Positions 21,935 to 43,292 of a stretch of 64,000 bases of DNA are shown in pieces. Source of the stretch: an uncultured Ardenticatenaceae bacterium. Its GTDB lineage: Bacteria > Chloroflexota > Anaerolineae > Promineifilales > Promineifilaceae. The stretch is from contig CAZRTM010000003.1 of assembly GCA_964602995.1 (NCBI GenBank), forward strand, positions 17,142-81,141. The letters run 5' to 3'. The notes beneath the pieces are model-generated. The model worked only from the letters and a program-made list of their open reading frames with translations, was not told the DNA's origin and did no database searches. Position 1 is the stretch's first letter. Every line of letters begins with the position of its first letter. Position numbers and translations under genes: made by a program.

Positions 21935-23680
21935 TTAACTCCTCAGGGCAGCGCGGCTGTTGTCATTCTCATAGTATCTGACCAGAGCCTCGACCAGCCC
22001 GTCCATTGTATACTTTGCGGCCACGACATCGGCGGGAATATCCAGCTCAGTGGCGGTTCCTGCGGTAATGGGTCCAATGCAGGCAACGACGGCATTGTGG
22101 GTCAATCGTTGTGCTGCGGCTGGGCCGCCAACAAGGTCAACGAAGTTGCGCACGGTTGACGAGCTGGTGAAGGTGATGGCATCAGTGTTTTCCAGCCGTT
22201 GTAGCACTTTATCGTCGGGGCTGGCCGGCAGGGTATGGTAGGTAGCGATTTCTTCGACGTTGGCGCCGTTCTCGTTCAGCATATCGGCGAGAGTGGTGCG
22301 GGCCTGCTCGGCGCGTGGCAGAAGAATGGAAAGGCCTTCAACATTACCCAGCCCTTCTGCAATGCGTTCGGCAACAAATTCATCGGGGATAAAATCGACG
22401 TCCACGCCTCGCCCGGCAAGGGCGCGCCCGGTGGCAGGGCCAATAGCGGCGACCTGCACCTGGCGAAGGCTGCTTGCATCCAGGCTGGCGGCCAGGAGCC
22501 GTTCCCAGAAGATCTCCACGCCATTGACGCTGGTGAAGATAATCCAGTCATAGTGCTGCAGCCTGCGTATGGCATCGTCCAGCTCGGTCGTGTCGGCAAC
22601 CGGCGCAATTTTAATGGTGGGAAAGAAGATGGGTGTAGCGCCCAGGTTAATAAGACGCTCTGCCAGCTCTGGCGCCTGGGCGCGGGTGCGCGTGATCACA
22701 ATGCGCCTCCCATGCAGAGGCAGTTGTTGCACTGCTTTGCCGGTGCTCCTGGTCACGTCTTCCAGAATGGCGTTTGCGCCTTGCTGCAGGGCCTCTTGCG
22801 CCAACTTGTGGCCCAGCTCATAAGGGTCGTCATCTCGTCCGCTGACTCGAATGAGCCGGCCACCATTGGGCGCGGCAATAAGCCCGGTCATTTCCATATC
22901 GCCACCATTCACCGGCCGGGCATAAGCGGCAATGGGAGCTGAGCAGCCACCGCCCAGCGTTTGCAGAAAATGCCGTTCGGCTGTGGTAGTCTGGCGCGTC
23001 TTGTCGTCGTCGATGCGGGCCAGAAGCGCCAGCGTCTCTTCATCGTCGGCCCGGCACTGCACGGCCACGGCGCCCTGCCCCGGCGCCGGTAGCATCACGT
23101 CCAGCGCCAGCCAGTCAGAAACCAGGTCATCCATCCCTAAGCGCTGCAGGCCGGCGGCGGCCAATACAGCGGCGTTGTAGTCGTCGCTCTCCAATGCCTT
23201 CTTCACTCGCGTGCCCACATTGCCCCGAATCGACTTAACGACCAGATCGGGGCGGACCGCCAGTAGCTGGGCCTGGCGGCGCAGGCTGCTGGTGCCGATG
23301 ATGGAGCCGGGCGGCAACGTTTCAAGCGTGTGGCCGTTGCGCGCTACGAGTCCATCGCGCACATCACCGCGAGCCGGTATGGCGCCGATGGTCAGGCCAG
23401 GCGCGTTCTGGACCGGAAGGTCTTTCAGGGAATGGACGGCAATGTCGATGACGCCCTCGCGCAAGGCTTTCTCCAGTTCGGCGGTAAATAGACCTTTGCC
23501 GCCGATTTGTGGCAAAGGTTGGTCAAGGCTCTTATCGCCGCGTGTTACAAACGGTTTTATGTCGCAGGCGAGACCGGGCCACGCTTGTTGCAAAAGGTTG
23601 ACAATGTACTCTGTCTGCCAGCGGGCGAGTTCGGAGGTGCGCGTTCCTATGCTCAGGGTACGGGTTGGTACAGAATTCAT
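21935..23680 (-). CDS. hemC: Fused hydroxymethylbilane synthase / uroporphyrinogen-III synthase
   Basis: The N-terminal half is HemC-like (IGTRTSELARWQ, SLKDLP). The C-terminal half is HemD-like (RRIVITRTRAQAPELAERL..GA.P). Single 581-aa ORF. Confidence 0.9.
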   Translation of the reverse strand: MNSVPTRTLSIGTRTSELARWQTEYIVNLLQQAWPGLACDIKPFVTRGDKSLDQPLPQIGGKGLFTAELEKALREGVIDIAVHSLKDLPVQNAPGLTIGAIPARGDVRDGLVARNGHTLETLPPGSIIGTSSLRRQAQLLAVRPDLVVKSIRGNVGTRVKKALESDDYNAAVLAAAGLQRLGMDDLVSDWLALDVMLPAPGQGAVAVQCRADDEETLALLARIDDDKTRQTTTAERHFLQTLGGGCSAPIAAYARPVNGGDMEMTGLIAAPNGGRLIRVSGRDDDPYELGHKLAQEALQQGANAILEDVTRSTGKAVQQLPLHGRRIVITRTRAQAPELAERLINLGATPIFFPTIKIAPVADTTELDDAIRRLQHYDWIIFTSVNGVEIFWERLLAASLDASSLRQVQVAAIGPATGRALAGRGVDVDFIPDEFVAERIAEGLGNVEGLSILLPRAEQARTTLADMLNENGANVEEIATYHTLPASPDDKVLQRLENTDAITFTSSSTVRNFVDLVGGPAAAQRLTHNAVVACIGPITAGTATELDIPADVVAAKYTMDGLVEALVRYYENDNSRAALRS

Positions 23681-23683
23681 CAG

Positions 23684-25006
23684 TTACTTTTCAGTTTCAG
23701 GATTCAGGTTAAACAGGTCGCGCATGGTCGCCGCGTAGGTCTCGGCCTCGCCGTTGGTTGCTTTCTGACGTAGCCGGATGGTTGGCTCGTGCAATAGTTT
23801 GTTGACCAGCGAGCGGGAGAGATGCTGGAGGTGCCGCAGGGTTTCGGGATCAAGATCCTCGCCCAGATGGCGCAGCGTCCGTTGTAGCTCTCGCTGGCGA
23901 ATCGCTTCCGCTTTCTGCCGCAAATCGGTGATGACGGGCGCCACCACAAACTGCCGGTACTCTTTTTCAACGGCTGTCACTTCCTGGGCGATAATTTCCT
24001 CAACCAGCGGCACTTCCTTCTGCCGGGCTGCCAGCGCCTGATCTAGCGTATTTTGCAGATTGTCCATGTTAAAAAGCTGAACGCCTTGCAGCTCGCCGAC
24101 GGCGGGGTCCACGTCACGAGGGACGGCGATGTCGATGAGAACCAGCGGTGTCTGGCGTTGCTGGAGCTGTGCTCTATGAGCGACTTCCAGGTCAATCAGG
24201 GTGTGTGGGGATGCTGTCGCACTAAAGACAACATCAGCCGCCTGCATCGCGCCGGGCAGCTCGTCCAGCGAATAAACGGTACCGCTCCAGCTCTGCGCAA
24301 TGCTGGCCGCGGTATCGACTGTGCGGTTGACGAGCGCCAGATTTTGCACCCCACGCTTTTGCAGCGCGCTCACTGTGAGCCGGCCCATTTGACCGATGCC
24401 GACCACCAGGACCCGGCGCTCTTGCAGATTACCTACAATCTGCTCGGCCAATGCAATTGCTACAGAGCTAATGGTGGCCGGATTGCTGCTGATGCGCGTC
24501 TCGTTACGCGCTCGTTTGCCGGCGCGAATGGCGCCGCGAAACAGCACGGTGAGGGCGGCGCCAATGGCGCCTGTCTCGATGCCCCGCATGAAGACGTCGC
24601 TCACCTGGCCCAGAATTTGTGGTTCACCCAGAACGAGCGAGTCCAGCCCGGCGGCCACGCGCGCCAGGTGTTCGATGACGTGGCTCCCTGAGTAGCAGTA
24701 GATCTGTTCCTGTTCGGTAGCGTTCAGCTCAACCTGGTAGGCGTCGCGCAACAAGGCCAGTAACAGGTGGCGTGGATTGCCGGCTTCAGGCTCAATGGCG
24801 GCATAGAGTTCGATGCGGTTGCAGGTTGAGAGAACGGCCAGTTCGCTGATGGAGGCAAACTCGGCCGGTAGCTCGTCTGGCAGGAGCGGGGTGGGTAGGG
24901 CGCGGCAGATACGCTCGCGCAGGGCAACCGGAGCCGTGTGATGGCTAAGTCCAAGGCAGGTTATTTGCATAATTGGCGTCATATTCCTGGGCATATTCAT
25001 CGGCAA
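23684..25006 (-). CDS. hemA: Glutamyl-tRNA reductase (the true start may be MQITCLG at 24970)
   Basis: GLSHHTAPVALRE, the active-site motif LSTCNRIELY, and the NADPH fold VVGIGQMG. Confidence 0.9.
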   Translation of the reverse strand: MPMNMPRNMTPIMQITCLGLSHHTAPVALRERICRALPTPLLPDELPAEFASISELAVLSTCNRIELYAAIEPEAGNPRHLLLALLRDAYQVELNATEQEQIYCYSGSHVIEHLARVAAGLDSLVLGEPQILGQVSDVFMRGIETGAIGAALTVLFRGAIRAGKRARNETRISSNPATISSVAIALAEQIVGNLQERRVLVVGIGQMGRLTVSALQKRGVQNLALVNRTVDTAASIAQSWSGTVYSLDELPGAMQAADVVFSATASPHTLIDLEVAHRAQLQQRQTPLVLIDIAVPRDVDPAVGELQGVQLFNMDNLQNTLDQALAARQKEVPLVEEIIAQEVTAVEKEYRQFVVAPVITDLRQKAEAIRQRELQRTLRHLGEDLDPETLRHLQHLSRSLVNKLLHEPTIRLRQKATNGEAETYAATMRDLFNLNPETEK

Positions 25007-31098: not shown

Positions 31099-33678
31099 TT
31101 ACGACAATTCAATGCCTTCCAGATAGGTTTTTACAGCAGCGGCGCTCTCTTGTTGCAGGGCGCCGTTTGCGATCTGGCGTGCCTGCTGGAAATTCAGCTT
31201 GCGGATGATTTCCTTAACAGTGGGGATGCTGGGAGCATTCATACTTAGCTCATCCAGGCCCAACCCGACCAGCAGCGGCGTTGCCAGAGCGTTGCCCGCC
31301 AGCTCACCGCACATGCCGACCCAGATGCCGGCATCGTGCCCGGCACGCACTGTTTGCTGAATCATGTGCAACACGGCCGGTTGCAGGGCGTCGGCCAGTT
31401 CGGCGACGTGCGCGTTGCCACGGTCTGCGGCCATAACGTACTGCGTGAGGTCGTTGGTGCCGATGCTGAAAAAGTCTACTTCGGGCGCCAGTTGCTCGGC
31501 AAGGGCTACGGCGGCGGGAACTTCGATCATAATGCCCACCGGCATCTGATCATCGTGCACTATGCCCTCGCCTGCCAGCGCCTCCTGGACTTCCCGGACG
31601 AGTTGCTTGGCTTTCTGCAGCTCGTAAAGGGTGCCCACCATGGGGAACATCATGCGAATCTTTTGATTATTTCCTGCGCGTAAGATGGCGCGCAACTGGG
31701 TGACGAAAATGTCGCGACGGTCGAGCGTAAGGCGGATGCCGCGCCAACCCAGGAAGGGGTTGTCTTCAGGTTCGAAATCGAAGTAAGGTAGCGGTTTATC
31801 GCCGCCGACGTCCAATGTGCGGATGATCAGTGGACGCCCGCCCAGGGCCTCGGCCGCGCTGCGATAGGCAGTGTACTGTTCTTCTTCTGACGGCGCGCTG
31901 TCGCGATCCAGAAAGAGGAACTCTGTGCGGAAGAGGCCAACGCCTTCGGCGCCGTATTCAACGGCGGTAGGGACATCGTTGGGATTGCCGATGTTAGCTG
32001 CCACTTCAATGCGCCGGCCATCGCGGGTTACGGCCGGTTGTTGCGCCGCCACTTTGGCTTCTGCTTCCCGCTTCAGCCATGCGCTCCGTTCCGCCTCCAG
32101 TTGTTCCAACTGTGCCGCATCGGGTTCAACCCAGATTTCTCCGCTCTGGCCGTCAATGGCCAGGGGGGTGCCCTGGGAGATGGTTTGCAGCCCTGGCCCG
32201 ACGCCGACGATGGCCGGAATGCCGAAGGCACGAGCGAGGATGGCGCTGTGCGACGTTGCGCCGCCGCGCTCGGTACAAATACCCAGCACGAGGGACGGTT
32301 CAAATTGGGCCGTGTCTGAAGGCGCCAGGTCGCTTGCCAACACAATGGATGGTTCTGACAGGTCAAGAGAAGCTGCCTGGGCGCCAAGTAGATGGCGCAA
32401 CACACGCTGTCCCACGTCGAGGACATCAGCGGCGCGACCCTGCATATAGTCGTCTGTCATTTGCCGGAATTGGCCGGCAAGCTCGTCGATTTCAGTCTGC
32501 CACGCAGCACCGGCGTTGATGCTTTGGGAAAGAATGCGTTCCTGGACGGCCTCCAGCAAAGATGGGTCCTCCAGAATCAGCATGTGTGCCTGAAAGATGG
32601 CGGCTTCGGCGCGGTTGCCCTGCGCGATGACTCGCCGGCGCAGGGCGTCGATTTCCTGACGGGCCGCGTGGATGGCGTCGAGCAGGCTTTGCCATTCGGC
32701 CGAGGGATCCGCAACGGAGTACGTTTCAACCCGGTGTTGTTGGGCGCGGTAATGGACGGCCGGACCGATGGCGATTCCCGGAGACGCAGGAATGCCGGCC
32801 AATGTTCCTGTGCCGCTTTCGGGTGGCGCCGGGCTGGTCACGGCTCGGGCTTGCTTCCCTTCAACCTCAGCTTCCACCAGCTCCTCTTCTTCGCCGAAGC
32901 GGGAACGGACCAGCGCTTGTAGTTCTGCCAGGGCCTCCTGCGCGTCGGGGCCGCTGGCGGTGATGGCAATCTCGTCGCCGAAGCGCGCTCCCAGTGTGGC
33001 TACCTGGTTGATGCTTTTCGCATTGGCGCTCTTGTCTTCTTTGCGCACCTGGATGTCGGAGGCGAAGCGGTTGGCGGTGGAGACGAACTGTGCAGCGGGG
33101 CGGGCGTGTAGGCCCATGCGGTTCTCAATGGCGACGCGAACTTCGTGGCCTGCGCCGCCGTCTGCATCGCCGGTTGCTGTTTCTTGCGCGACGCTTTCAG
33201 CACCGGCCGCTGCTCCAGGCATCTGATCTTGCTTGGCACGGAGTGCGCCGAGCGCTTCTTCGCAGACCTGATCCAGCGTGCCGCCGACCGAGGCCTGGAC
33301 TGCCGCGGCAATGGCCCCTTCGACGAGGGGGGCGCCGCAGAGGCGTACACTGGCTTGCTGTTCTTCGGGCAGGAACTCCACGGCCATTTCAGTACTCATA
33401 ATGGCGCTACCCAGATCAACCAGAACAACAACGCCGTCATCGGAGTAGACCGACTGAATGGCCTCGTGGACCTTCATGGCATCGGTCCCAATGGGATTGT
33501 CTGGATCGTCAATGCCACCGGCGGCGGCAATTTGTACGGCGCTGCCCTGGACCATCTGCGTTGCAAGCTCGCGTACGCCTTCAGCCAGGCTGGCGCTATG
33601 GGATACGATAACAATGCTAACCACGGTTCCTTTACCTTTCGTTGGCGTAGGTTTAGGCTCAGGTTTGAATGATGCCAA
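31099..33678 (-). CDS. dhaM: DhaM-type EIIA(Man)-like domain fused to HPr and a full-length PTS Enzyme I
   Basis: IVIVSHSASLAEG (DhaM phospho-His), GLHARPAAQF (HPr His15 motif), GGATSHSAILARAFGIPA (EI phospho-His), and the C-terminal PEP-binding barrel motifs GLFRTEFLF, IGTNDLTQY and MCGELAG. Confidence 0.88.
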   Translation of the reverse strand: MASFKPEPKPTPTKGKGTVVSIVIVSHSASLAEGVRELATQMVQGSAVQIAAAGGIDDPDNPIGTDAMKVHEAIQSVYSDDGVVVLVDLGSAIMSTEMAVEFLPEEQQASVRLCGAPLVEGAIAAAVQASVGGTLDQVCEEALGALRAKQDQMPGAAAGAESVAQETATGDADGGAGHEVRVAIENRMGLHARPAAQFVSTANRFASDIQVRKEDKSANAKSINQVATLGARFGDEIAITASGPDAQEALAELQALVRSRFGEEEELVEAEVEGKQARAVTSPAPPESGTGTLAGIPASPGIAIGPAVHYRAQQHRVETYSVADPSAEWQSLLDAIHAARQEIDALRRRVIAQGNRAEAAIFQAHMLILEDPSLLEAVQERILSQSINAGAAWQTEIDELAGQFRQMTDDYMQGRAADVLDVGQRVLRHLLGAQAASLDLSEPSIVLASDLAPSDTAQFEPSLVLGICTERGGATSHSAILARAFGIPAIVGVGPGLQTISQGTPLAIDGQSGEIWVEPDAAQLEQLEAERSAWLKREAEAKVAAQQPAVTRDGRRIEVAANIGNPNDVPTAVEYGAEGVGLFRTEFLFLDRDSAPSEEEQYTAYRSAAEALGGRPLIIRTLDVGGDKPLPYFDFEPEDNPFLGWRGIRLTLDRRDIFVTQLRAILRAGNNQKIRMMFPMVGTLYELQKAKQLVREVQEALAGEGIVHDDQMPVGIMIEVPAAVALAEQLAPEVDFFSIGTNDLTQYVMAADRGNAHVAELADALQPAVLHMIQQTVRAGHDAGIWVGMCGELAGNALATPLLVGLGLDELSMNAPSIPTVKEIIRKLNFQQARQIANGALQQESAAAVKTYLEGIELS

Positions 33679-33722: not shown

Positions 33723-34109
33723 TCACATGCTGACCAGAACAACTTCTAACCAGATGCCATAAGCGATGGCGATGATGCCGATAATGACGGCTGCCCAATC
33801 AACGACTCGGCGTGTGGACGGACTGACGTTGAGATCGAGGATAATGGCCCTCATGCCAAGCATGGCGTGGATGGTCACAACGATGAGGAAAATGATGGTG
33901 ATGGTGAAGATGAGTGGGTTGGATATGTAATCGATGACCTGTTCAAAGTTGCGAAGGCTACCTTCAACGACGAAGTGGTGCGCGATCATGTGCAGGAGCA
34001 GCAGAAAGACGAGGAGGACACCGGTGAAGGCCTGAATCAGCCAGATGGTCCCGGCGGCGCTGCCGCGGGGCTGTCCTTGTTTAGTTTGTGAAAGTTGGAC
34101 GTCTGTCAT
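33723..34109 (-). CDS. SdhD-like small membrane anchor subunit (3 TM)
   Basis: 128 aa with three hydrophobic helices and His-containing motifs (LHMIAHHF, HAMLGMR). Lies 10 nt after the SdhC-like ORF. Confidence 0.65.
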   Translation of the reverse strand: MTDVQLSQTKQGQPRGSAAGTIWLIQAFTGVLLVFLLLLHMIAHHFVVEGSLRNFEQVIDYISNPLIFTITIIFLIVVTIHAMLGMRAIILDLNVSPSTRRVVDWAAVIIGIIAIAYGIWLEVVLVSM

Positions 34110-34119
34110 GGCTAGACTC

Positions 34120-34551
34120 CTATAGCGTGAAGATGATATAGGCGCTGATCGTCAACAGGACAATGGTGACGGCGGTGACGACCCAGAACAGAGTGCGTTG
34201 GCGGTCGGCGCCCATGCCCAGACCCACAAGCGTGACCCGGATGCCGTTCAGCCCATGAAACAGCACGCCGAAGATGAGAATGACGTCAAGGATCAGGAAG
34301 AAGGGTGTCTTTGCCAGCGCTATGAAGCTGTCCCAACCTTCTTCACCGCGGGTCAACAGAAAGAGGACGGCCAGGTGCAGAAAGAGGTAGAGCGTAAGCC
34401 CCAGCGCTGTGAGACGGTTGAGGGCAAAGGCCCAGGAGCCTGCACGGTCGCGGCGCACGTCGAACCAGGCGCGGATGGGGTTTTTGGCGCGCACGCGTCG
34501 CAATTTTCTGGCCTGAGGAAAATCTCTTAATTCAGGTGGGGCGTCTTCCAT
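34120..34551 (-). CDS. SdhC-like cytochrome b membrane anchor subunit (3 TM)
   Basis: 143 aa with three helices, a LHL motif and the FHGLNGIR motif typical of SdhC. Confidence 0.7.
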   Translation of the reverse strand: MEDAPPELRDFPQARKLRRVRAKNPIRAWFDVRRDRAGSWAFALNRLTALGLTLYLFLHLAVLFLLTRGEEGWDSFIALAKTPFFLILDVILIFGVLFHGLNGIRVTLVGLGMGADRQRTLFWVVTAVTIVLLTISAYIIFTL

Positions 34552-34575
34552 AGGACTTTCTCCTTTTTGATCAGC

Positions 34576-35304
34576 CTAGCGGCGCCCAAAGTCAAAGAGG
34601 TTGCGAAACTTCTGCCTGGTCAGCTCGCCGCGCAAAGACATGATCTTGCCGCCGGGGTCAACACCGGTGGGGCAGACTTCTGTGCATTCATAGGCGACGT
34701 GACAGCGCCAGCAGCCTTTCTCATTGTCAACCCAGTCCAGCGCATCTTGTGGGTCGCGGCCACGTGGTTCCTCCACCACGCGCCAGGCGGCCGCCAGCGC
34801 CGCCGGACCATAATAATTTTCGTCTGTGCCCATAATGGGGCAGGCAGAGACACAGGCGCCACATTCAATACAGTTCTCAAAGCGTGTGTACAATTCTATG
34901 CCATCGGGCGTCGCTGACTCTGCCAGGAATTCGCTTTGGCGGATATAGGGCCGGTCGGCGGGGTTGAGGCGCCCGTAGAAATTGACCATGTCTACGACCA
35001 GATCGCTCACCACCGGGATGTTGCGCAATGGCTCAACCAGAACTGTCTCTGTGCCAAGCTCCATGGCTCTGACCACACAGGCCAGTTGTTCCTGCCCGTT
35101 GATGACCATGGCGCAGGTGCCGCACGAGGCGTGGTGACAGGAGTGGCGTAGCATAAGTGAGGGGTCCTGGTCGCGGCGAATGTGCATCAGGGCGATCAGA
35201 ACGGTGGTGTTTTCGTCAACAGTGACAGGATAGGTTTCGTAGCGAGGCGCTTCGTCTCCTTCATTGTAGCGGAATAGCTTGAACTGAAGTTCTTTCTGAG
35301 CCAT
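34576..35304 (-). CDS. SdhB/FrdB-like iron-sulfur subunit
   Basis: 2Fe-2S pattern CHHASCGTC...C, then CIECGACVSACP and CHVAYECTEVCP cluster motifs. Confidence 0.88.
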   Translation of the reverse strand: MAQKELQFKLFRYNEGDEAPRYETYPVTVDENTTVLIALMHIRRDQDPSLMLRHSCHHASCGTCAMVINGQEQLACVVRAMELGTETVLVEPLRNIPVVSDLVVDMVNFYGRLNPADRPYIRQSEFLAESATPDGIELYTRFENCIECGACVSACPIMGTDENYYGPAALAAAWRVVEEPRGRDPQDALDWVDNEKGCWRCHVAYECTEVCPTGVDPGGKIMSLRGELTRQKFRNLFDFGRR

Positions 35305-35312
35305 TAGTCTCC

Positions 35313-36491
35313 TCAGGCGTAGTATGCTTCGAATGGTAGGAGGACGACTTCTTTGGTGCGGCAGGGTGCATCGATGCCCAGTTTGCCGACTACGACATCG
35401 GCCGCTGCTTCTGCCATGCCACGTAGCGTGGTTGCTTTCCCCCCGGTGATGGTGACAAATCCTTCGACCCCCTCATCGCTATGGTCAAAGCATTTGAAGG
35501 TGCGGCTCAGCGCCCGGCCACTATCGGCATCGGCCTGTCGCGGGCCAATGAGGGGGCGAGCGGCCGACCACGCGGCGCGGAACGGTGTCTCATTGACGAG
35601 TGGTATCATCTTGGCTCCTTCATCATACATCAGTTGGATGTGGTCTTCGGGCAAACCCAGAGCGTCGGGATCCTCAACGACCCAGGAGCTGGTGCCAATA
35701 ACTGAGAGGTTGCGCTGGGGAACGATGATGTCACCGTCGCCGGATCTGGTCATGCGATTGATGACCATATTGCACAAACGGCCCTGCAGCGCGACCATGA
35801 CGCCGGGCGAGGGCCGGATCGGCACTTCCACGCCGGCCATGTCGGCGATCTGCCCGCTCCAGGGGCCGGCGGCGTTGATGATGATGTCAGCGCCAATTTC
35901 GTACTCTTTGCCGCGCGCATGATCGATGGCGCGCACGCCCGTGACTGTGTTGCCCTGTTTGACGACGCCAATCACCTCGTGGAAGGGGCGAATGGTGGCG
36001 CCGTTCTGTTTGGCAGTGGCAAAGAAGCGTAGTGGCAGGCGCATGGCGTCCATGGTGGCGTCGGGGATGCGAACGGCCAGAATTGTGTCTGGGTTGAGAT
36101 TTGGTTCCAGGCGCAGCGCTTGCTCTCGGGTCAGCCGTTGTGTGGGAATGCCGCACTCAGCGCATCCTTCCAGAAAGGCGTGGCTGTATTCAACATCCTC
36201 GTCATTGATGGCTACAAAGAGGCCGTCATTTTCCTCGAAAGAGCCAGGAGCGATCCGGCGCAGCGTCATGTTTTCTTCGATGCACTCGATGGCGCTCTCC
36301 TGGTCGTTGACGGCGTAGCGGGCGCCGCTGTGTAACAGACCGTGATGGCGGCCGGTTGTGCCCGCTGTGACTTCATGCCGTTCCAGCAGCGTCACCTTCA
36401 GGCCCCGCAACGCCAGGTCGTGTGCAACGGCTGCACCTGTGCCACCCCCACCCACAATCAGTGCGTGAAATGTTTCCATAGTTTCCCCCAT
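35313..36491 (-). CDS. glpA: GlpA-like FAD-dependent glycerol-3-phosphate dehydrogenase, lacking the C-terminal BFD-type 2Fe-2S domain
   Basis: IVGGGGTGAAVA, TGRHHGLLHSGARYAV and GFVTITGGKATTLRGMAE match E. coli GlpA motifs. The protein is 392 aa, against about 540 aa in E. coli. The second ATG (36479) has the better SD spacing. Confidence 0.85.
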   Translation of the reverse strand: MGETMETFHALIVGGGGTGAAVAHDLALRGLKVTLLERHEVTAGTTGRHHGLLHSGARYAVNDQESAIECIEENMTLRRIAPGSFEENDGLFVAINDEDVEYSHAFLEGCAECGIPTQRLTREQALRLEPNLNPDTILAVRIPDATMDAMRLPLRFFATAKQNGATIRPFHEVIGVVKQGNTVTGVRAIDHARGKEYEIGADIIINAAGPWSGQIADMAGVEVPIRPSPGVMVALQGRLCNMVINRMTRSGDGDIIVPQRNLSVIGTSSWVVEDPDALGLPEDHIQLMYDEGAKMIPLVNETPFRAAWSAARPLIGPRQADADSGRALSRTFKCFDHSDEGVEGFVTITGGKATTLRGMAEAAADVVVGKLGIDAPCRTKEVVLLPFEAYYA

Positions 36492-36520
36492 CCTCGCCTG
36501 TAGCCATGCAGTTCAGTGAG

Positions 36521-36548
36521 ACATCCGGTTTTCCGGAAAAGCGGATGT
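36521..36548. repeat. 28-nt near-perfect palindrome between glpK and the glpA-like gene
   Basis: ACATCCGGTTTTCC|GGAAAAGCGGATGT with one mismatch. On the plus strand it is followed by TTTTT. Confidence 0.7.
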
Positions 36549-36567
36549 TTTTGCCGATAAGAAGGGA

Positions 36568-36601
36568 GGATTTACCATAACAGATCTGTTACGGTAAATC
36601 C
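36568..36601. repeat. 34-nt near-perfect palindrome centred on AGATCT
   Basis: GGATTTACCATAACAG|ATCTGTTACGGTAAATCC, arms 16/17 nt with one mismatch. Confidence 0.7.
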
Positions 36602-36684
36602 TACCCGATTTCTTGACAAACTGCATGCTACTGCTGCTTCTCATGGAGAGAGTCGCAGCGCGCAAGGGGGTTGATGGGTTGAGG

Positions 36685-38217
<1,533 letters not shown>

Positions 38218-38252: not shown

Positions 38253-38885
38253 CTATGCCTCTTTGAGCGTCTCAAGCAACGTCTTTAGCATCAGGTAGGA
38301 TGAGGTTGCTCCCGGATCCTGATGACCAATACTACGTTCTCCGAGGTAACTGGCCCGTCCTTTCTTGGCCTGCAGGGGTATGGTGTCTTCCATGCCCTGT
38401 TCCGCGGCTTGCACGGCCGCCTCCAGAGCCGTTATTGTGTCGTTGCCTTCGCCCAGCGATTTCCGCATGGCGTCCAGCGCCGGCATCCAGGCATCTATCA
38501 TCGTTTTGTCGCCCAATTGAGCGCGTCCACGTTGGATCAGACCATCAACACCGGCCTGCAACAGCGCCGCCAGATCTTCGCCGCTTAGCTCTTCTTTAGC
38601 CGCGGCGGACATGCCGGCGCGCATAAAGAAAGTGCCATAGAGCGGGCCACTGGCGCCGCCGACGCTGGAAATGAGCGTCATACCCGTTGTTTTGAGAATG
38701 TTACCGATGTCTTTATCGGCAACGCCAGGTAGCTTCTCCATCACTTTGTCGAAGCCCCGCTTCATGTTGGTGCCATGATCGGCATCACCAATCGCGGAGT
38801 CTAGCTGCGTGAGATACTCTTTGTTCTCCGTGAGGACACCGGCCAGATTCTTCAACCACTGTACAACTTGGTCCTTGCTTGCCAT
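38253..38885 (-). CDS. dhaL: Dihydroxyacetone kinase, ADP-binding subunit DhaL
   Basis: LTQLDSAIGDADHGTNM and GGASGPLYG motifs. Confidence 0.9.
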   Translation of the reverse strand: MASKDQVVQWLKNLAGVLTENKEYLTQLDSAIGDADHGTNMKRGFDKVMEKLPGVADKDIGNILKTTGMTLISSVGGASGPLYGTFFMRAGMSAAAKEELSGEDLAALLQAGVDGLIQRGRAQLGDKTMIDAWMPALDAMRKSLGEGNDTITALEAAVQAAEQGMEDTIPLQAKKGRASYLGERSIGHQDPGATSSYLMLKTLLETLKEA

Positions 38886-38916: not shown

Positions 38917-39990
38917 TTATACGCCCCAACGCAATCCTGGTGTGTTCACTGGCGCATCCCAAAAGCGGAGTATCTCATCATCTGCTTTAAGGAGGGTGAT
39001 CGATGCACCCTGCATTTCCAGAGACGTGATGTAAGGTCCGATCAGATTGCGTACAATCTCGATTCCTCTGTCTTCACAAATCTCGGTTAGTTTGCGATAG
39101 ATGGTGTACAGCTCAGAGACGGGTGTGCCGCCCATGCTATTGACGAAGGCGATGACGCGGTCGCCGGATTGGAACGGCTCGTCAGTCAGTTCCTTATCTA
39201 CCCATTCGCCATTTTCGTTGTCCCATTCACGGACTGTGCGCGAGTAGGCCGGGTCGTCGAGGATTTCGGTGGCCAGTATTTCGGTGATTTCATCAGCCGT
39301 AGTCATTTCCATACGGCGCTGGCCTGGTTCACCGTGGATACCAATACCGATTTCAATTTCGTTTTCGCCCAGTTCAAAAGTGGGTTTGCCGGCGGCAGGG
39401 ACCGTGCAGGAGGTCAGGGCCATGCCCATGGAACGGCCATACTGACTCACTCGTCTACAGAGGTCGGCGCATTGCTCAAGGGAATAGCCAGCTTCAGCAG
39501 CCGCGCCGACGATCTTTTCAGCCAGAACAGTCGTGCCTACACCACGGCGTCCGGCGGTGTAGAGGCTATCTTTCACGGCGACATCGTCGTCGATCAGGAT
39601 CGTCTGAACCTTAATGCCATCGGCATGGGCCAGCTCGGCGGCGGTTTCGAAGTTGAGGACATCGCCAGTGTAGTTCTTGACGATGAACAGGACGCCTTCG
39701 CCGCTGTCTACGGCCTTGGCGCACTCGTACATCTGGTCGGGAGTGGGGGACGTGAAGACTTCGCCGGGGCAGGCGCCGTCAAGCATGCCCATGCCCACGA
39801 ATCCACCATGCATTGGCTCATGCCCACTGCCGCCACCTGAGACAATGGCCACCTTGCCTGCAACTGGTGCATCGGCGCGATAGACATAGTTTGGTTCAAA
39901 ATGGACCTTCAGCATGTCGGGGTGGGCGATGGCCATCCCCTCCAACTGTTCCTTCACGACGTCGTCGACGGCGTTGATTAACTTCTTCAT
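38917..39990 (-). CDS. dhaK: Dihydroxyacetone kinase, DHA-binding subunit DhaK
   Basis: MKKLIN start with SD AAGGAG, plus [16 protein letters not shown] and the NYTGD motif. The ORF track start 40068 is probably too long. Confidence 0.92.
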
Positions 39991-40118
39991 GCTGCGCTCC
40001 TTTAGCTGATTGACCGTTTGATGACGGTCTAGATATGGGTCAGGTAACAGCCTGTGTTCCTGACCCATTATTCAGATTCAGTCGCGATCGTAGTGATTGT
40101 TGGGTCGACTGATTATGG

Positions 40119-40859
40119 TTACGGCGTTGCCAGAATGATAAGGATGCCAGCGAGGATGCCGCCAATGATCGGGCCAACGACCGGAATCCAACTGTAGCCC
40201 CAGTCGGAGTCTCCTTTGCCGGCAATGGGAAGCAGTTGGTGTGCGATACGGGGGCCGAGGTCACGGGCGGGGTTAATGGCGTACCCTGTGGGGCCGCCCA
40301 GAGAAAGGCCAATACCCCACACCAGGGCGCCGACGAGAAACGGTCCCAGACCGTCAACCGGGATGCCCATTGCGGTCGGTGAGCCGGTCATGTCAAATAT
40401 CGCTGCGACGCCCATGACCAGCACGATGGTGCCGACGATTTCAGTAACGGTGTTCCAAATAGGATTGCGAATGGCTGGGGCCGTGGAGAAGACGGCCAGC
40501 TTCAGGCCAGGATCCTGCGTAGGCGCCCAGTGCGGCATGTAGGCGAGCCAGACAATGATCGCGCCGATGATTGCGCCGACCATCTGAGCGATGATAAATC
40601 CTGGTACGTCTCCCCAAGCAAAGTTACCGGCAACAGCTAATCCGACGGTGACGGCCGGGTTGATATGTGCGGCAGAACTTCCGAAGAGGCCGGAAATGAA
40701 GACACCAACCATCACCGCAAAGGCCCACCCCGTGGTTATGACAATCCATCCTGCATTCTGCCCCTTAGATCTCTCCAGCAGTACATTGGCCACAACGCCA
40801 TCACCGAGAATGATCAGGAACATTGTGCCGAACAGTTCACCAAGAAACGGACTATTCAT
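40119..40859 (-). CDS. glpF: Aquaglyceroporin (MIP family)
   Basis: Two NPA boxes (HINPAVT, INPARD) and six TM segments. Confidence 0.92.
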   Translation of the reverse strand: MNSPFLGELFGTMFLIILGDGVVANVLLERSKGQNAGWIVITTGWAFAVMVGVFISGLFGSSAAHINPAVTVGLAVAGNFAWGDVPGFIIAQMVGAIIGAIIVWLAYMPHWAPTQDPGLKLAVFSTAPAIRNPIWNTVTEIVGTIVLVMGVAAIFDMTGSPTAMGIPVDGLGPFLVGALVWGIGLSLGGPTGYAINPARDLGPRIAHQLLPIAGKGDSDWGYSWIPVVGPIIGGILAGILIILATP

Positions 40860-40885
40860 CTTTTCCCATCCTTTTTTCTAACTGG

Positions 40886-40894
40886 TTGTTTCAA
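40886..40894. repeat. TTGTTTCAA motif copy just upstream of glpF
   Basis: Exact 9-mer that is also present at 41234-41242. Its reverse complement is at 41276-41284. Confidence 0.6.
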
Positions 40895-41233
40895 CGTCGC
40901 AACATTCGTCTGCAATCTGTATATCTTCTGATGGTTACTCAGCAGTTACCTCCCTCCTTTCATGATAGCCACAATACCCTGGTGACACAGAGATTGTGGG
41001 ACACGGAACAGATTCAACGAGAAGTACCTCTCCATGATTGAAAAGGTACGAGTTGCGGAGTAGGTTGAACAATGAGGGGTGTGGTGAACACAGCATGTAA
41101 CTCCTCGTAAGATTTGTCACAGCCGGTACCCGCAAACGTGCACAAGAAAAGCGGACGTTGTTGCTGCAGTTGTTACAGCATCCAGTGAGCATTCTGTAGG
41201 ATTTATAGAGGCGATTCAACGGGTAGGGGGAAA

Positions 41234-41284
41234 TTGTTTCAAATTGGAACGAGAGCCAATGAGCTTTGTTTCGGTTTGAAACAA
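41234..41284. repeat. Cluster of TTGTTTC(AA)/TTGAAACAA motifs next to the dhaR-like stop codon
   Basis: TTGTTTCAAA at 41234-41243, TTGTTTC at 41266-41272 and TTGAAACAA at 41276-41284. The last two form a 7-bp hairpin with a 5-nt loop. Confidence 0.6.
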
Positions 41285-41288
41285 GAGG

Positions 41289-43292
41289 TCAGGAGGGAGG
41301 CGTTTTGAATAGATCAGCTTCAATATTGTATTGCTTCATTTTGCGCCACAAGGTTGTACGCCCAATGCCTAGCTGTTCTGCCATCTTTGTTGGCTGCCCG
41401 GCGCAAGCCCAACCTGCGCGGATGATCGCTTCGCGTTCGGCCTCGGCAATGGAGAGGAGGGGCTGCGGTTCGGGCGAGTTCCCCGTGAGCACACGGCCTT
41501 CGCGGACAGGGCGGGGCAGGTCGAAGAGGCGTACGGTACCATCATTACTGTGGTTGAGCGCCCGCTCCAGCACGCTTTCCAGCTCACGCACATTACCGGG
41601 CCAGGGATAGCGGTTGAGGATGGCCATTACGTCGTCGCTGATCCAGGCTGCTCGTTTCTCAGTGCGGGTGATGCGCGCCAGGAATCGTTCAGCCAGAAGC
41701 GGAATGTCCTCTGCTCGCTCGCGCAGGGGCGGAATTGTAATGCTGAATACGCCGAAACGATAGTAGAGGTGGGGCAGAAAGCTTCCTTCTCGCACGCGCT
41801 GTTGAAGGTCGGCAGTGGAGGCGGCGATAATGCGCACATCGACCGGAATGGAGCGGCGGCTGCCCAGGCGCATAATGTGTCCGGTCTCGATGAGGTGGAG
41901 AACGACAGCCTGCATTTCCAGCGACAGGTGTTCGACCTGATCCAGAAGCAAAGTGCCTCCGGCAGCCAGCTCAAATTTACTGGGCCGGCTGTTCCTGTTT
42001 CCTTCCTCGTCGTGGCCCAGGAATTCGCTGATCATCAGCTCGTGAGGGATGGCCTGGCAATTGATGGCGATAAATGGCGCGTCGGCTGGCATACCGTCAT
42101 TGTGGATGGCGCGGGCCAGGTGGTTCTTGCCCACGCCCCCTTCGCCGCGAATCAGCACGGGCGCTGTGCCTCGCGCCGCAATGCGGGCCTGCCGTAGCAC
42201 TGCGCGCATGGCGCCTGACTGACTGGAACTGGCAATGTTGTCCAGGCTGAGGGTAGCCTTCACACCGATTTGCTGGTGTACCAAACGACGCACGTGCTCA
42301 ATCGGGCGCAGCATTACGAGATTGCCAATATAGCGCTGGCCCTCGAAAACAGGGCGCAGGCTGACGAGGCAGTGCGCGCTGTGACCATCCAATTGTAGAA
42401 CGGTATCCACGTCACGCAGCTCTGAGCGGTTGGCGGCAGCATCGGTGATGAGCGACGGGAAGGGCAAAGCCTCTGTGAAAGGTCGGCCCACAATGGAGGC
42501 AGGGTTGAGCTGCAAAATTTCACCAGCCGTGGGGTTGACATGATTGATGATGCCATTTTCGTTCCAGGAGATGATGCCCTCGGAAATGGCGCTCAGAATG
42601 GTTCGTACTTCGGTCAGATGCCTGTTAGCTTCTTCCACAAACCAATCTGTCTGTAACTGGTTGCTGATGGCGCGAGCGGCAGTCATCACCAGACCCAGGG
42701 TGTGTGAGCTGGCATTCTGCACAGAACCGACGATGCCTAGAATGCCAACGAGCGCAATGCGCCCGCGTACGTCGTGAATGGGAGCCGCGGTTGTGGTCAG
42801 CTCATGGTTGGCCTGGAAATAATGTTCAGCTCCTACCACCTGCATAGGCATGGCCGTGATGCGGACCACACCAAGGGCGTTGGTTCCCAACTGTCCTTCG
42901 GACCAGTAGGCACCCTGACCCAGCCCACGCTGTTGTAGAGAGTGCACACGCTGGGGGTCGCCGACGACGTCGAGGACGCAGGCTGAAGCGTCCGCCAACA
43001 GAATGGCGCAATCAGAGCCTTCAATAAATTGGTGGATATCTTCCATAAGTGGGGCTGCCACCCCGATTAGCGTGCTATGGGCGCGCAGGACCCGCTCCAG
43101 GGACGCTTTTTTCAGGCTTTTGGAGTGTGGTTCTGCCTCGTAATCGAGCCGCGGCAGGCAGCGCCGCCACGATTGCAAAACGGCGGGATCCAGGAATTTG
43201 CTTTCTTCAGAGTTGAGCTGTCCGGTTTCGACAAAGGAACGCCAGACCTCACTCAGGCGCTCCCATTGCACAGGATACGCGTCTGGTTGCAT
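41289..43292 (-). CDS. dhaR: DhaR/AcoR-like enhancer-binding-protein-family regulator (GAF/PAS sensor, AAA+ domain, Fis-type HTH), GAFTGA-less
   Basis: Walker A GEGGVGKNHLARAIH, Walker B GGTLLLDQVE, WPGNVRELE, and the C-terminal HTH MAEQLGIGRTTLWRKM. The GAFTGA position reads HDEEGNRNSRPS. Confidence 0.82.
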   Translation of the reverse strand: MQPDAYPVQWERLSEVWRSFVETGQLNSEESKFLDPAVLQSWRRCLPRLDYEAEPHSKSLKKASLERVLRAHSTLIGVAAPLMEDIHQFIEGSDCAILLADASACVLDVVGDPQRVHSLQQRGLGQGAYWSEGQLGTNALGVVRITAMPMQVVGAEHYFQANHELTTTAAPIHDVRGRIALVGILGIVGSVQNASSHTLGLVMTAARAISNQLQTDWFVEEANRHLTEVRTILSAISEGIISWNENGIINHVNPTAGEILQLNPASIVGRPFTEALPFPSLITDAAANRSELRDVDTVLQLDGHSAHCLVSLRPVFEGQRYIGNLVMLRPIEHVRRLVHQQIGVKATLSLDNIASSSQSGAMRAVLRQARIAARGTAPVLIRGEGGVGKNHLARAIHNDGMPADAPFIAINCQAIPHELMISEFLGHDEEGNRNSRPSKFELAAGGTLLLDQVEHLSLEMQAVVLHLIETGHIMRLGSRRSIPVDVRIIAASTADLQQRVREGSFLPHLYYRFGVFSITIPPLRERAEDIPLLAERFLARITRTEKRAAWISDDVMAILNRYPWPGNVRELESVLERALNHSNDGTVRLFDLPRPVREGRVLTGNSPEPQPLLSIAEAEREAIIRAGWACAGQPTKMAEQLGIGRTTLWRKMKQYNIEADLFKTPPS

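Follow-up and report, generated by a model that had tools for sequence, protein, structure and literature searches.

The closest described relative of the system treated here appears in a recent classification of glycerol-3-phosphate dehydrogenases (G3PDHs), which includes a type labelled 'GlpA-SdhBCD (T. pendens)' (Schmerling et al., 2025, Commun Biol 8:539, PMC11962113; bioRxiv 2024). This type was deduced from gene synteny in Thermofilum-related archaea and read as a membrane-anchored G3PDH, and the canonical glpA of bacteria was said to co-occur consistently with glpB and glpC (PMC11962113). In Thermofilum pendens, the gene for a GlpA almost devoid of a C-terminal extension (Tpen_1127) is followed downstream by sdhB, sdhC, and sdhD. 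A 64-kb stretch of DNA from an uncultured Ardenticatenaceae bacterium (contig CAZRTM010000003.1, positions 17,142 to 81,141; referred to as the window, whose numbering is used throughout) has the same predicted architecture at 33723-36491 on the minus strand, where an extension-less GlpA is succeeded by sdhB, sdhC, and sdhD. The likeness to the Tpen_1127 set is one of gene content and order, not of sequence, and by its predicted gene products the locus is a bacterial member of the predicted GlpA-SdhBCD type. Unlike the Thermofilum type, which is archaeal and was described through synteny and a cartoon, the window locus is bacterial, has its closest homologues in records labelled Chloroflexota, and is accompanied by a sigma-54-dependent activator. 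An earlier, sequence-only reading of this DNA held that no G3PDH of such composition had been described, a claim that the 'GlpA-SdhBCD (T. pendens)' entry contradicts (PMC11962113). Beyond the Sulfolobus/Thermofilum paper and its preprint, the literature searched contained no bacterial description of the arrangement. The bacterial distribution, the gene fusions, the di-haem ligands, the anchor-dependent quinone-face motif, and the CCG-fused and anchor-less variants reported below appear to be new relative to that work (PMC11962113).

Other characterized systems resemble the window locus in part. Escherichia coli GlpABC has a homologous catalytic subunit, catalyses the reaction predicted for the window set, and delivers electrons to the quinone pool via iron-sulfur centres, its output being the peripheral CCG-domain protein GlpC. 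In contrast, the window set has no BFD domain, GlpB, or GlpC, and its predicted output is the three-cluster wire of SdhB together with an integral di-haem anchor. GlpD and GlpO share their fold and active-site residues, and by prediction their reaction, with the window flavoprotein and are its best structural matches; however, GlpD functions as a single-subunit, monotopic homodimer that carries a C-terminal DAO_C cap and lacks an iron-sulfur partner, and the window protein has no DAO_C domain. The GlpA-CoxG system of Sulfolobus acidocaldarius (Saci_2032/2031) likewise combines a truncated GlpA, without BFD domain, GlpB, or GlpC, with a non-canonical membrane partner. There, a small CoxG-like protein devoid of redox centres serves as the partner, in a system that has been shown biochemically, whereas the partner in the window is a predicted iron-sulfur/haem wire. 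The Sdh2 complex of Mycobacterium smegmatis (PDB 6LUM) resembles the window set in its three-cluster SdhB, its two anchors with three transmembrane (TM) segments each, its four histidines for haems bP and bD, and its SdhC arginine and SdhD aspartate. It differs in that the substrate predicted for the window set is glycerol-3-phosphate (G3P) instead of succinate, and an SdhF-like gene was not seen. Unlike complex II in general, the window flavoprotein has the DAO fold, not FAD_binding_2 plus Succ_DH_flav_C, and is without the histidine context of covalent FAD. As a whole, the set shares with complex II the features of SdhB and of a type A anchor, and the defining SdhA is missing from the window.

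The four genes very probably encode one membrane-bound sn-glycerol-3-phosphate:menaquinone oxidoreductase, in which a G3P flavoprotein takes the place of the SdhA subunit of complex II. What can be observed directly in this regard is the domain content of the proteins, their cofactor and substrate ligands, the conservation of the gene set, the fusions of its genes, and the co-variation of a W-R-C-H motif in SdhB with the anchor genes. The locus consists of four minus-strand open reading frames (ORFs) at 36491..35313 (392 aa), 35304..34576 (242 aa), 34551..34120 (143 aa), and 34109..33723 (128 aa), and these coordinates bear out the tight packing described earlier, with intergenic gaps of 8, 24, and 10 nt. 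A GGAG-type ribosome-binding site precedes the ATG of all three downstream genes by 6-9 nt. As the sequence-only reading had stated for the operon, no SdhA, GlpB, or GlpC gene is present, and tblastn with E. coli queries extends this to the whole 64-kb window. The sole GlpC signal there is a ferredoxin motif that matches the SdhB gene.

ORF 1 (short glpA, the predicted FAD-dependent catalytic subunit) matches the Pfam DAO family (E 2.4e-48), and its best NCBIfam family is TIGR03377, GlpA (E 3e-133), followed by GlpO (3e-26). This places the 392-aa protein in the GlpA family and not outside GlpA/GlpD, and both motifs quoted in the sequence-only reading for a GlpA-like FAD domain are indeed present. 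The TIGR03377 match spans profile positions 2-377 of 530 only, and the protein scores under the curated GlpA cut-offs (445.2 bits against 552.8 for TIGR03377 and 382 against 425 for PRK11101) because the C-terminal third is missing. Relative to E. coli GlpA, with which it shares 41.6% identity over residues 26-386, the window protein stops at the equivalent of about residue 390, ahead of the BFD [2Fe-2S] domain at residues 432-484. In the Pfam search, ORF 1 gave no match to the BFD domain (PF04324), none to the DAO_C cap (PF16901), and no other C-terminal domain beyond the DAO fold. Its scores for the GlpD families are also under their cut-offs (PRK12266, 90.6 bits against 360; PRK13369, 73.7 against 352). 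The protein is a GlpA-family catalytic domain that falls short of three GlpA features, namely the score cut-off, the BFD domain, and the GlpB and GlpC partners. The exact 392-aa protein had no entry in the records searched, and an identical SdhB is encoded on a near-identical 43-kb contig in ENA that does not extend past the window. The annotation of this contig starts the flavoprotein gene from Met5, which gives 388 aa, and close homologues of short GlpA are mostly 386-389 aa long; the true start is thus probably Met5 at 36479, with a protein of 388 aa.

FAD-binding residues of the short GlpA are G14-x-G16-x2-G19 and E37. Its active-site residues H54 (36330-36332), R58 (36318-36320), Y59 (36315-36317), R312 (35556-35558), and K352 (35436-35438) align with His65, Arg69, Tyr70, Arg346, and Lys429 of Streptococcus GlpO, and all five are kept in 79-80 of 81 aligned sequences, which comprise the 80 genome loci described below and L001. 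We take the GlpO residues to be the conserved G3P/flavin-site residues of GlpO and GlpD, with the two arginines and the lysine presumably binding the phosphate. The short GlpA is taken to lie at the cytoplasmic face; with its Rossmann motif beginning at residue 10, no signal peptide is apparent. Among ten positions flagged in a comparison with long canonical GlpAs, seven (H24, N88, F156, P229, Q259, R260, and A310) are at least 90% conserved in SdhB-linked GlpAs and at most 4% in the long proteins; these are candidates for the surface that docks SdhB. Cys377, near the C-terminus, was considered as an adaptation to SdhB and rejected, as it is equally conserved in long GlpAs (61/80).

The second ORF encodes an SdhB/FrdB-type iron-sulfur subunit with Fer2_3 and Fer4_8 domains (Pfam), which scores 196 bits for TIGR00384 (dhsB) against a cut-off of 88. 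Among proteins of known structure it is closest to E. coli FrdB (E 6.7e-41), and its identity with the SdhB/FrdB sequences of E. coli that were compared is only ~30-38%. Eleven cysteines lie along the sequence in the three SdhB/FrdB clusters already recognized in the sequence-only reading (C56/61/64/76, C145/148/151/155, and C201/207/211). Sorted by cofactor they form the groups C56/C61/C64/C76, C145/C148/C151 with C211, and C155/C201/C207, which are the predicted ligands of a [2Fe-2S], a [4Fe-4S], and a [3Fe-4S] cluster, and they are kept in 71-75 of 75 orthologues. C198 was considered as a fourth ligand that would turn the 3Fe-4S cluster into a 4Fe-4S cluster; this was rejected, as it is present in 13/75 orthologues only. 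The proximal quinone-site motif W199-R200-C201-H202 is also present (H202 at 34699-34701), and from our own reading of the motifs we take H202 to correspond to E. coli SdhB His207. The W-R-C-H motif is kept in 51 of the 53 loci that have SdhCD and in none of the 22 that do not, and this co-variation ties the SdhB of these operons to the SdhCD encoded beside it.

The last two ORFs encode the SdhC-type (143 aa) and SdhD-type (128 aa) anchor subunits, which match Sdh_cyt at 54 and 47 bits, respectively (cut-off 25.8); SdhC also exceeds the cut-off of TIGR02970 (55.3 bits against 52.3). Three hydrophobic segments are found in each, predicted as TM segments at about 47-65, 83-101, and 124-142 in SdhC and about 24-42, 66-84, and 108-126 in SdhD, in agreement with their earlier description as 3-TM, SdhC/SdhD-like proteins with histidine motifs. 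The best solved match of SdhC is the SdhC of M. smegmatis Sdh2 (6LUM_C, E 1.3e-12), and SdhD matches both 6LUM_C and 6LUM_D. Sdh2 is a di-haem succinate:menaquinone oxidoreductase, whose haem bP is held by His D107 and His C87 and whose haem bD has His D65 and His C47 as its ligands (PMC7447783). In the window proteins, SdhC H59 (34375-34377) and SdhD H40 (33990-33992) align with the distal-haem ligands His C47 and His D65, and SdhC H99 (34255-34257) and SdhD H81 (33867-33869) align with the proximal-haem ligands His C87 and His D107. Conservation in glpA-linked orthologues is nearly complete, with H59 in 53/53 and H99 in 52/53 SdhC sequences and both H40 and H81 in 53/53 SdhD sequences. SdhC R46 and SdhD D92, which are kept in 53/53 and 52/53 orthologues, presumably occupy the positions of E. 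coli SdhC Arg31 and SdhD Asp82, again by our own reading of the motifs. The anchor therefore looks like one with the ligand set of a di-haem type A complex II, and is predicted to bind haem. Since all four haem-binding histidines of Sdh2 are present, it is not of the single-haem E. coli kind. Of the electron path proposed in the sequence-only reading, from iron-sulfur clusters to a haem b/quinone site, the ligands for the three clusters are present, and the implied single-haem anchor gives way to one with four di-haem histidines. A fifth histidine, SdhD H45 (33975-33977), lies five residues past the distal-haem ligand H40 and is present in 53/53 orthologues; it may form part of a distal site for quinone or protons.

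In the proposed mechanism, glycerol would enter through GlpF and be phosphorylated to G3P by GlpK. The short GlpA, at the cytoplasmic face, would then oxidize G3P to dihydroxyacetone phosphate (DHAP) on its FAD, which is probably non-covalent, as presumed from the DAO family. Having lost the BFD domain, it would pass electrons to the [2Fe-2S] cluster of a docked SdhB, from which they would run through the [4Fe-4S] and [3Fe-4S] clusters to a quinone site formed where SdhB, SdhC, and SdhD meet, to two b haems, or to both, the haems being held by the four histidines of SdhC and SdhD. Menaquinone is the quinone that Chloroflexota and Actinomycetota use. For the window proteins, it is their assembly, G3P as substrate, menaquinone as acceptor, the occupancy of the haem sites, and the use of a proximal or a distal quinone site that we infer.

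The distribution of the gene set was surveyed by scanning contigs from one genome per species with aligned short GlpAs. The 80 closest loci were taken, all of them bacterial and the nearest species only 81% identical, and every ORF in them was compared with the window proteins and E. coli references. By their record titles, from which all taxon labels are drawn, 37 loci belong to Chloroflexota, 23 to Actinomycetota, 9 to Desulfobacterota (including Nitratidesulfovibrio isolates), and 8 to Spirochaetota, with one each from Planctomycetaceae, Bacteriovoracaceae, and an unclassified bacterium. SdhB adjoins short GlpA in 74 of the 80 loci; three of the six loci without it end at a contig edge and three are truly without, which makes 74 of 77 judgeable loci. 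SdhC and SdhD are both present in 52 of the 80, no SdhA/FrdA homologue occurs within 8 kb in any, and GlpB/GlpC are absent from 78. The predicted archaeal GlpA-SdhBCD design is widespread in bacteria. In most Chloroflexota and Actinomycetota loci glpK adjoins short glpA and the order glpF-dhaK-dhaL-glpK-glpA-sdhB-sdhC-sdhD-dhaM is conserved, and a 707-kb Ardenticatenaceae contig has the same gene order from glpF to dhaM. Archaeal members did not appear in cluster look-ups of distant short-GlpA representatives, which gave either names from Chloroflexota or no name.

Further evidence for a functional unit comes from fusions of the first two genes. In Cellulomonas sp. T2.31MG-18, a 712-aa ORF consists of a short GlpA (14-395), a linker of ~65 residues rich in Thr/Ala/Gly/Pro, and an SdhB (462-692), and is followed by SdhC and SdhD genes. 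A search with the Cellulomonas fusion returned ~30 clusters (at 90% identity) of fusions of 664-752 aa with DAO, Fer2_3, and Fer4_8 domains, whose identity to the query is as low as 67%. Their sources include Cellulomonas sp. SG140 and P24, Pengzhenrongella phosphoraccumulans, Isoptericola sp. b490, and Actinotalea sp. M2MS4P-6 (fusion genes L041:7917-10055 and L086:9001-11067; proteins P0391-P0421). Genes for SdhC and SdhD come after the fusions, and the fusion gene of Cellulomonas sp. P24 precedes two Sdh_cyt genes, with which it forms a stand-alone three-gene unit away from glpK. The SdhB portion of the fusion holds the place in sequence order that the BFD domain has in canonical GlpA. Retention of the fusion across several genera is Rosetta-stone evidence that GlpA and SdhB work as one unit, and is hard to reconcile with an SdhB that serves a distant SdhA. 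One further candidate, P0327 (483 aa), was set aside because its sequence is scrambled, probably through an error of assembly.

When 208 sequences of the GlpA family were placed in a neighbour-joining tree, with E. coli GlpA as the root and without bootstrap support, all 78 SdhB-linked or SdhB-fused GlpAs fell in one clade of 100 leaves, whose other members are two anomalous sequences and otherwise only short proteins. Outside this clade lie all 67 long GlpAs, which have a C-terminal extension that is in most cases of BFD type, and all 13 GlpA-GlpB fusions. A single origin of the SdhB-linked GlpAs is a reasonable inference from this tree. Taken together, adjacency in 74/77 loci, the lack of SdhA within 8 kb, the fusions, and a W-R-C-H motif kept only with SdhCD indicate that the association of GlpA and SdhB is not due to chance. 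The proposal, first made in the sequence-only reading, that a G3P flavoprotein occupies the SdhA slot is strongly supported by this synteny across phyla, together with the fusions, the W-R-C-H co-variation, and the intact ligands.

Beyond the four-gene form, the clade includes several variants. In Desulfobacterota, Spirochaetota, and a few other groups, there is a pair of short GlpA and SdhB with no recognizable adjacent membrane partner (L051, L052, L056, L058, L060, L062, L064, L065, L067, L068, L071, L072, L074, L076, L078-L080, L082, and L084), and the SdhB of these loci has lost the W-R-C-H quinone-face motif. Three Actinomycetota loci of Solirubrobacterales type (L025:9104-10777, L033:9040-10788, and L036:8980-10890) encode an SdhB with a C-terminal extension of ~290 aa, after which neither SdhC nor SdhD follows. 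A domain scan of L025 and L036 found a CCG cysteine-rich domain in the extension of the former and no CCG match in the latter. The CCG domain occurs in TfrB, SdhE, and GlpC. The extended SdhB suggests a different output module, possibly a monotopic one. Three Chloroflexota loci, two of them from Thermoflexales (L049, L050, and L063), have a short GlpA of the same clade without SdhB nearby, next to which a LacI-type regulator and a luciferase-like monooxygenase are encoded; its partner may be another protein or may lie elsewhere in the genome. In L044:10791-14988, from a Streptosporangiaceae metagenome-assembled genome (MAG), and L059:1321-5970, from a Chloroflexia MAG, a canonical glpA-glpB-glpC set lies directly beside short glpA-sdhBCD. 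Because these two loci carry both, the short form is a distinct enzyme and not a decayed glpA, and the coexisting types of G3PDH perhaps serve different redox conditions. Lastly, in a Spirochaetaceae MAG (L074:2474-5604), a 906-aa DAO-BFD-Pyr_redox_2 fusion and a DUF1667 protein are encoded immediately upstream of the GlpA-short/SdhB pair, a set that resembles the Thermococcus-type G3PDH-NOX-MOX system.

These variants invite a broader and decidedly tentative proposal, one that we consider possible but would not favour at present. The GlpA-short/SdhB heterodimer would be a portable and ancient module for G3P oxidation, hitherto unnoticed in bacteria, whose output varies by lineage, and its SdhCD form would be electrogenic, with the two haems taking electrons through the membrane to a distal menaquinone site. 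Chloroflexota and Actinomycetota may then use a di-haem SdhCD, loci of the Solirubrobacterales type a fused CCG domain, and Desulfobacterota and Spirochaetota no anchor. If this were true, the oxidation of G3P would be coupled to the proton motive force; we know of no G3P dehydrogenase for which such electrogenic coupling has been described.

In the window, the four genes are embedded in a set of genes for glycerol and dihydroxyacetone metabolism, all on the minus strand. The genes for the glycerol facilitator (glpF, 40119-40859) and the dihydroxyacetone kinase subunits (dhaK, 38917-40068, and dhaL, 38253-38885) were identified from the MIP, Dak1, and Dak2 domains, respectively, of orthologous genes. 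They are followed by the glycerol kinase gene glpK (36685..38217; FGGY_N and FGGY_C on homologues in L001 and L085), which lies directly upstream of short glpA. On the other side, 44 nt past sdhD, begins a gene for an 859-aa dhaM-HPr-EI fusion (31099..33678; EIIA-man, PTS-HPr, PEP-utilisers_N, PEP-utilizers, and PEP-utilizers_C), the phosphoryl donor of DhaKL. No glycerol dehydrogenase (gldA-like) gene was found among the flanking ORFs scanned, although the operon encodes DhaK, DhaL, and DhaM-HPr-EI. A domain search identified a DhaR-like sigma-54-dependent activator with GAF-PAS-AAA+-HTH_8 architecture at 41289..43292, which is likely the regulator of the operon and has counterparts at the equivalent position in L001, L006-L008, L011, L048, L053, L054, and L075. 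The 193-nt spacer between glpK and glpA (36492-36684, minus strand) contains two palindromes, the first being GGATTTACC...GGTAAATCC, with TAACAGATCTGTTA inside, and the second CATCCG...CGGATG. They could act as an operator or attenuator, or mark an internal promoter region, and so set glpK apart from the dehydrogenase genes. Genes of haem biosynthesis, which fit an anchor predicted to carry haem, are located ~10 kb from the operon on the minus strand (21935-25006), where the domain search found hemA, for glutamyl-tRNA reductase (23684-25006), and a hemC-hemD fusion, for porphobilinogen deaminase/uroporphyrinogen-III synthase (21935-23680).

Several points weigh against the assignment of these genes to a G3P:menaquinone oxidoreductase. 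Specificity for G3P is predicted from homology and gene context only, and the GlpA-SdhBCD type, Thermofilum included, is known from genes alone. The absence of SdhA covers the 64-kb window, and a separate canonical succinate dehydrogenase (SDH) elsewhere in the genome is a presumption. A di-haem anchor is also unexpected for an exergonic reaction, which the transfer from G3P to menaquinone is, given an E0′ of about -190 mV for the DHAP/G3P couple and of about -74 mV for menaquinone; the two haems might only stabilize the anchor, or might let electrons cross the membrane to a distal site, as in Sdh2. An AlphaFold2 model of the fusion P0408, calculated from an 87-row block alignment, reached a predicted local distance difference test (pLDDT) score above 90 in the GlpA half, about 50-65 in most of the SdhB half, and a predicted template modelling (pTM) score of 0.62, and its output says nothing on how GlpA and SdhB dock. 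The flavoprotein part of this model best matches solved GlpD and GlpO structures in Foldseek. Finally, the sigma-54 -24/-12 consensus (TGGCAC-N5-TTGC, with at most one mismatch) was not found upstream of glpF at 40860-41288, so the operon structure is deduced from gene spacing only; the two matches to it elsewhere in the sequence are fewer than expected by chance.

Among the alternatives, the one that survives best, although we regard it as unlikely, retains the SdhB/C/D chain and assigns the flavoprotein a different substrate, such as L-2-hydroxyglutarate, glycine, sarcosine, an opine, or another 2-hydroxy or amino compound. The DAO superfamily is catalytically diverse, and glycine oxidase, sarcosine oxidase beta, proline dehydrogenase, and L-2-hydroxyglutarate dehydrogenase are among the structural neighbours. 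A score of ORF 1 under the trusted cut-off of GlpA would fit such a substrate, as would the lack of a neighbouring glpK in Cellulomonas and at many loci of Desulfobacterota and Spirochaetota. However, over the 377 profile positions they share, the E-value for GlpA is better than that for any other family by a margin of more than 100 orders of magnitude, and the five GlpO/GlpD-type active-site residues are nearly invariant (79-80/81). The gene also directly follows glpK in the window and in most loci of Chloroflexota and Actinomycetota, so G3P is retained as the predicted substrate.

It is very unlikely that the enzyme works in reverse, as a menaquinol:DHAP reductase that makes G3P for lipids, or that SdhCD is a mere non-redox tether. 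The reversibility of complex II enzymes speaks for the reductase, as does the SdhB, whose greatest similarity is to FrdB of the quinol-oxidizing E. coli enzyme, and the anchor-less GlpA-SdhB forms imply that an anchor is dispensable for some function. Yet with the potentials given above (about -190 mV against about -74 mV), the reduction of DHAP by menaquinol would be uphill, and the genes stand in a catabolic operon with glpF, glpK, dhaKLM, and a DhaR-like activator. The strong conservation of the haem ligands and quinone-face residues argues for a redox anchor instead of a tether. Least likely is a coincidental adjacency, with SdhB/C/D serving an ordinary SDH or fumarate reductase (FRD) whose sdhA lies elsewhere and short GlpA acting alone or with some other partner: the three proteins are bona fide SdhB and Sdh_cyt family members, and a search confined to the window leaves room for a distant sdhA, but this sits poorly with an adjacency that spans several phyla with no sdhA within 8 kb, with covalent GlpA-SdhB fusions in several Micrococcales genera, with a loss of BFD that coincides exactly with the gain of SdhB in one clade, with a characterized Chloroflexus SDH that is of type B (SdhABC, a single 5-TM subunit) and thus unlike the two-subunit anchor found here (PMC12663545), and with the extra GlpA-SdhB pair in Nitratidesulfovibrio, relatives of D. 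vulgaris, which is cited among organisms with a canonical menaquinone-dependent succinate:quinone reductase (SQR; PMC12663545).

If the four genes do encode a G3P:menaquinone oxidoreductase, many Chloroflexota and Actinomycetota would send electrons from glycerol to quinone by a route distinct from both GlpD and GlpABC, and sulfate reducers and spirochaetes would use a reduced form of this third route to the quinone pool. The bacterial loci correct the published generalization that bacterial glpA is always accompanied by glpBC. Current annotation names the proteins 'FAD-dependent oxidoreductase' and 'succinate dehydrogenase/fumarate reductase iron-sulfur subunit', and because of such pipeline names, metabolic reconstructions from MAGs can mis-score both glycerol catabolism and the tricarboxylic acid cycle. 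The fusions and the cultured carriers, such as Thermanaerothrix solaris, Cellulomonas spp., and Nitratidesulfovibrio spp., open the way to purification and electron cryo-microscopy. Ultimately, the system would be a clear example from nature of one flavoprotein replacing another on an SdhB/C/D scaffold, which bears on the evolution of complex II.

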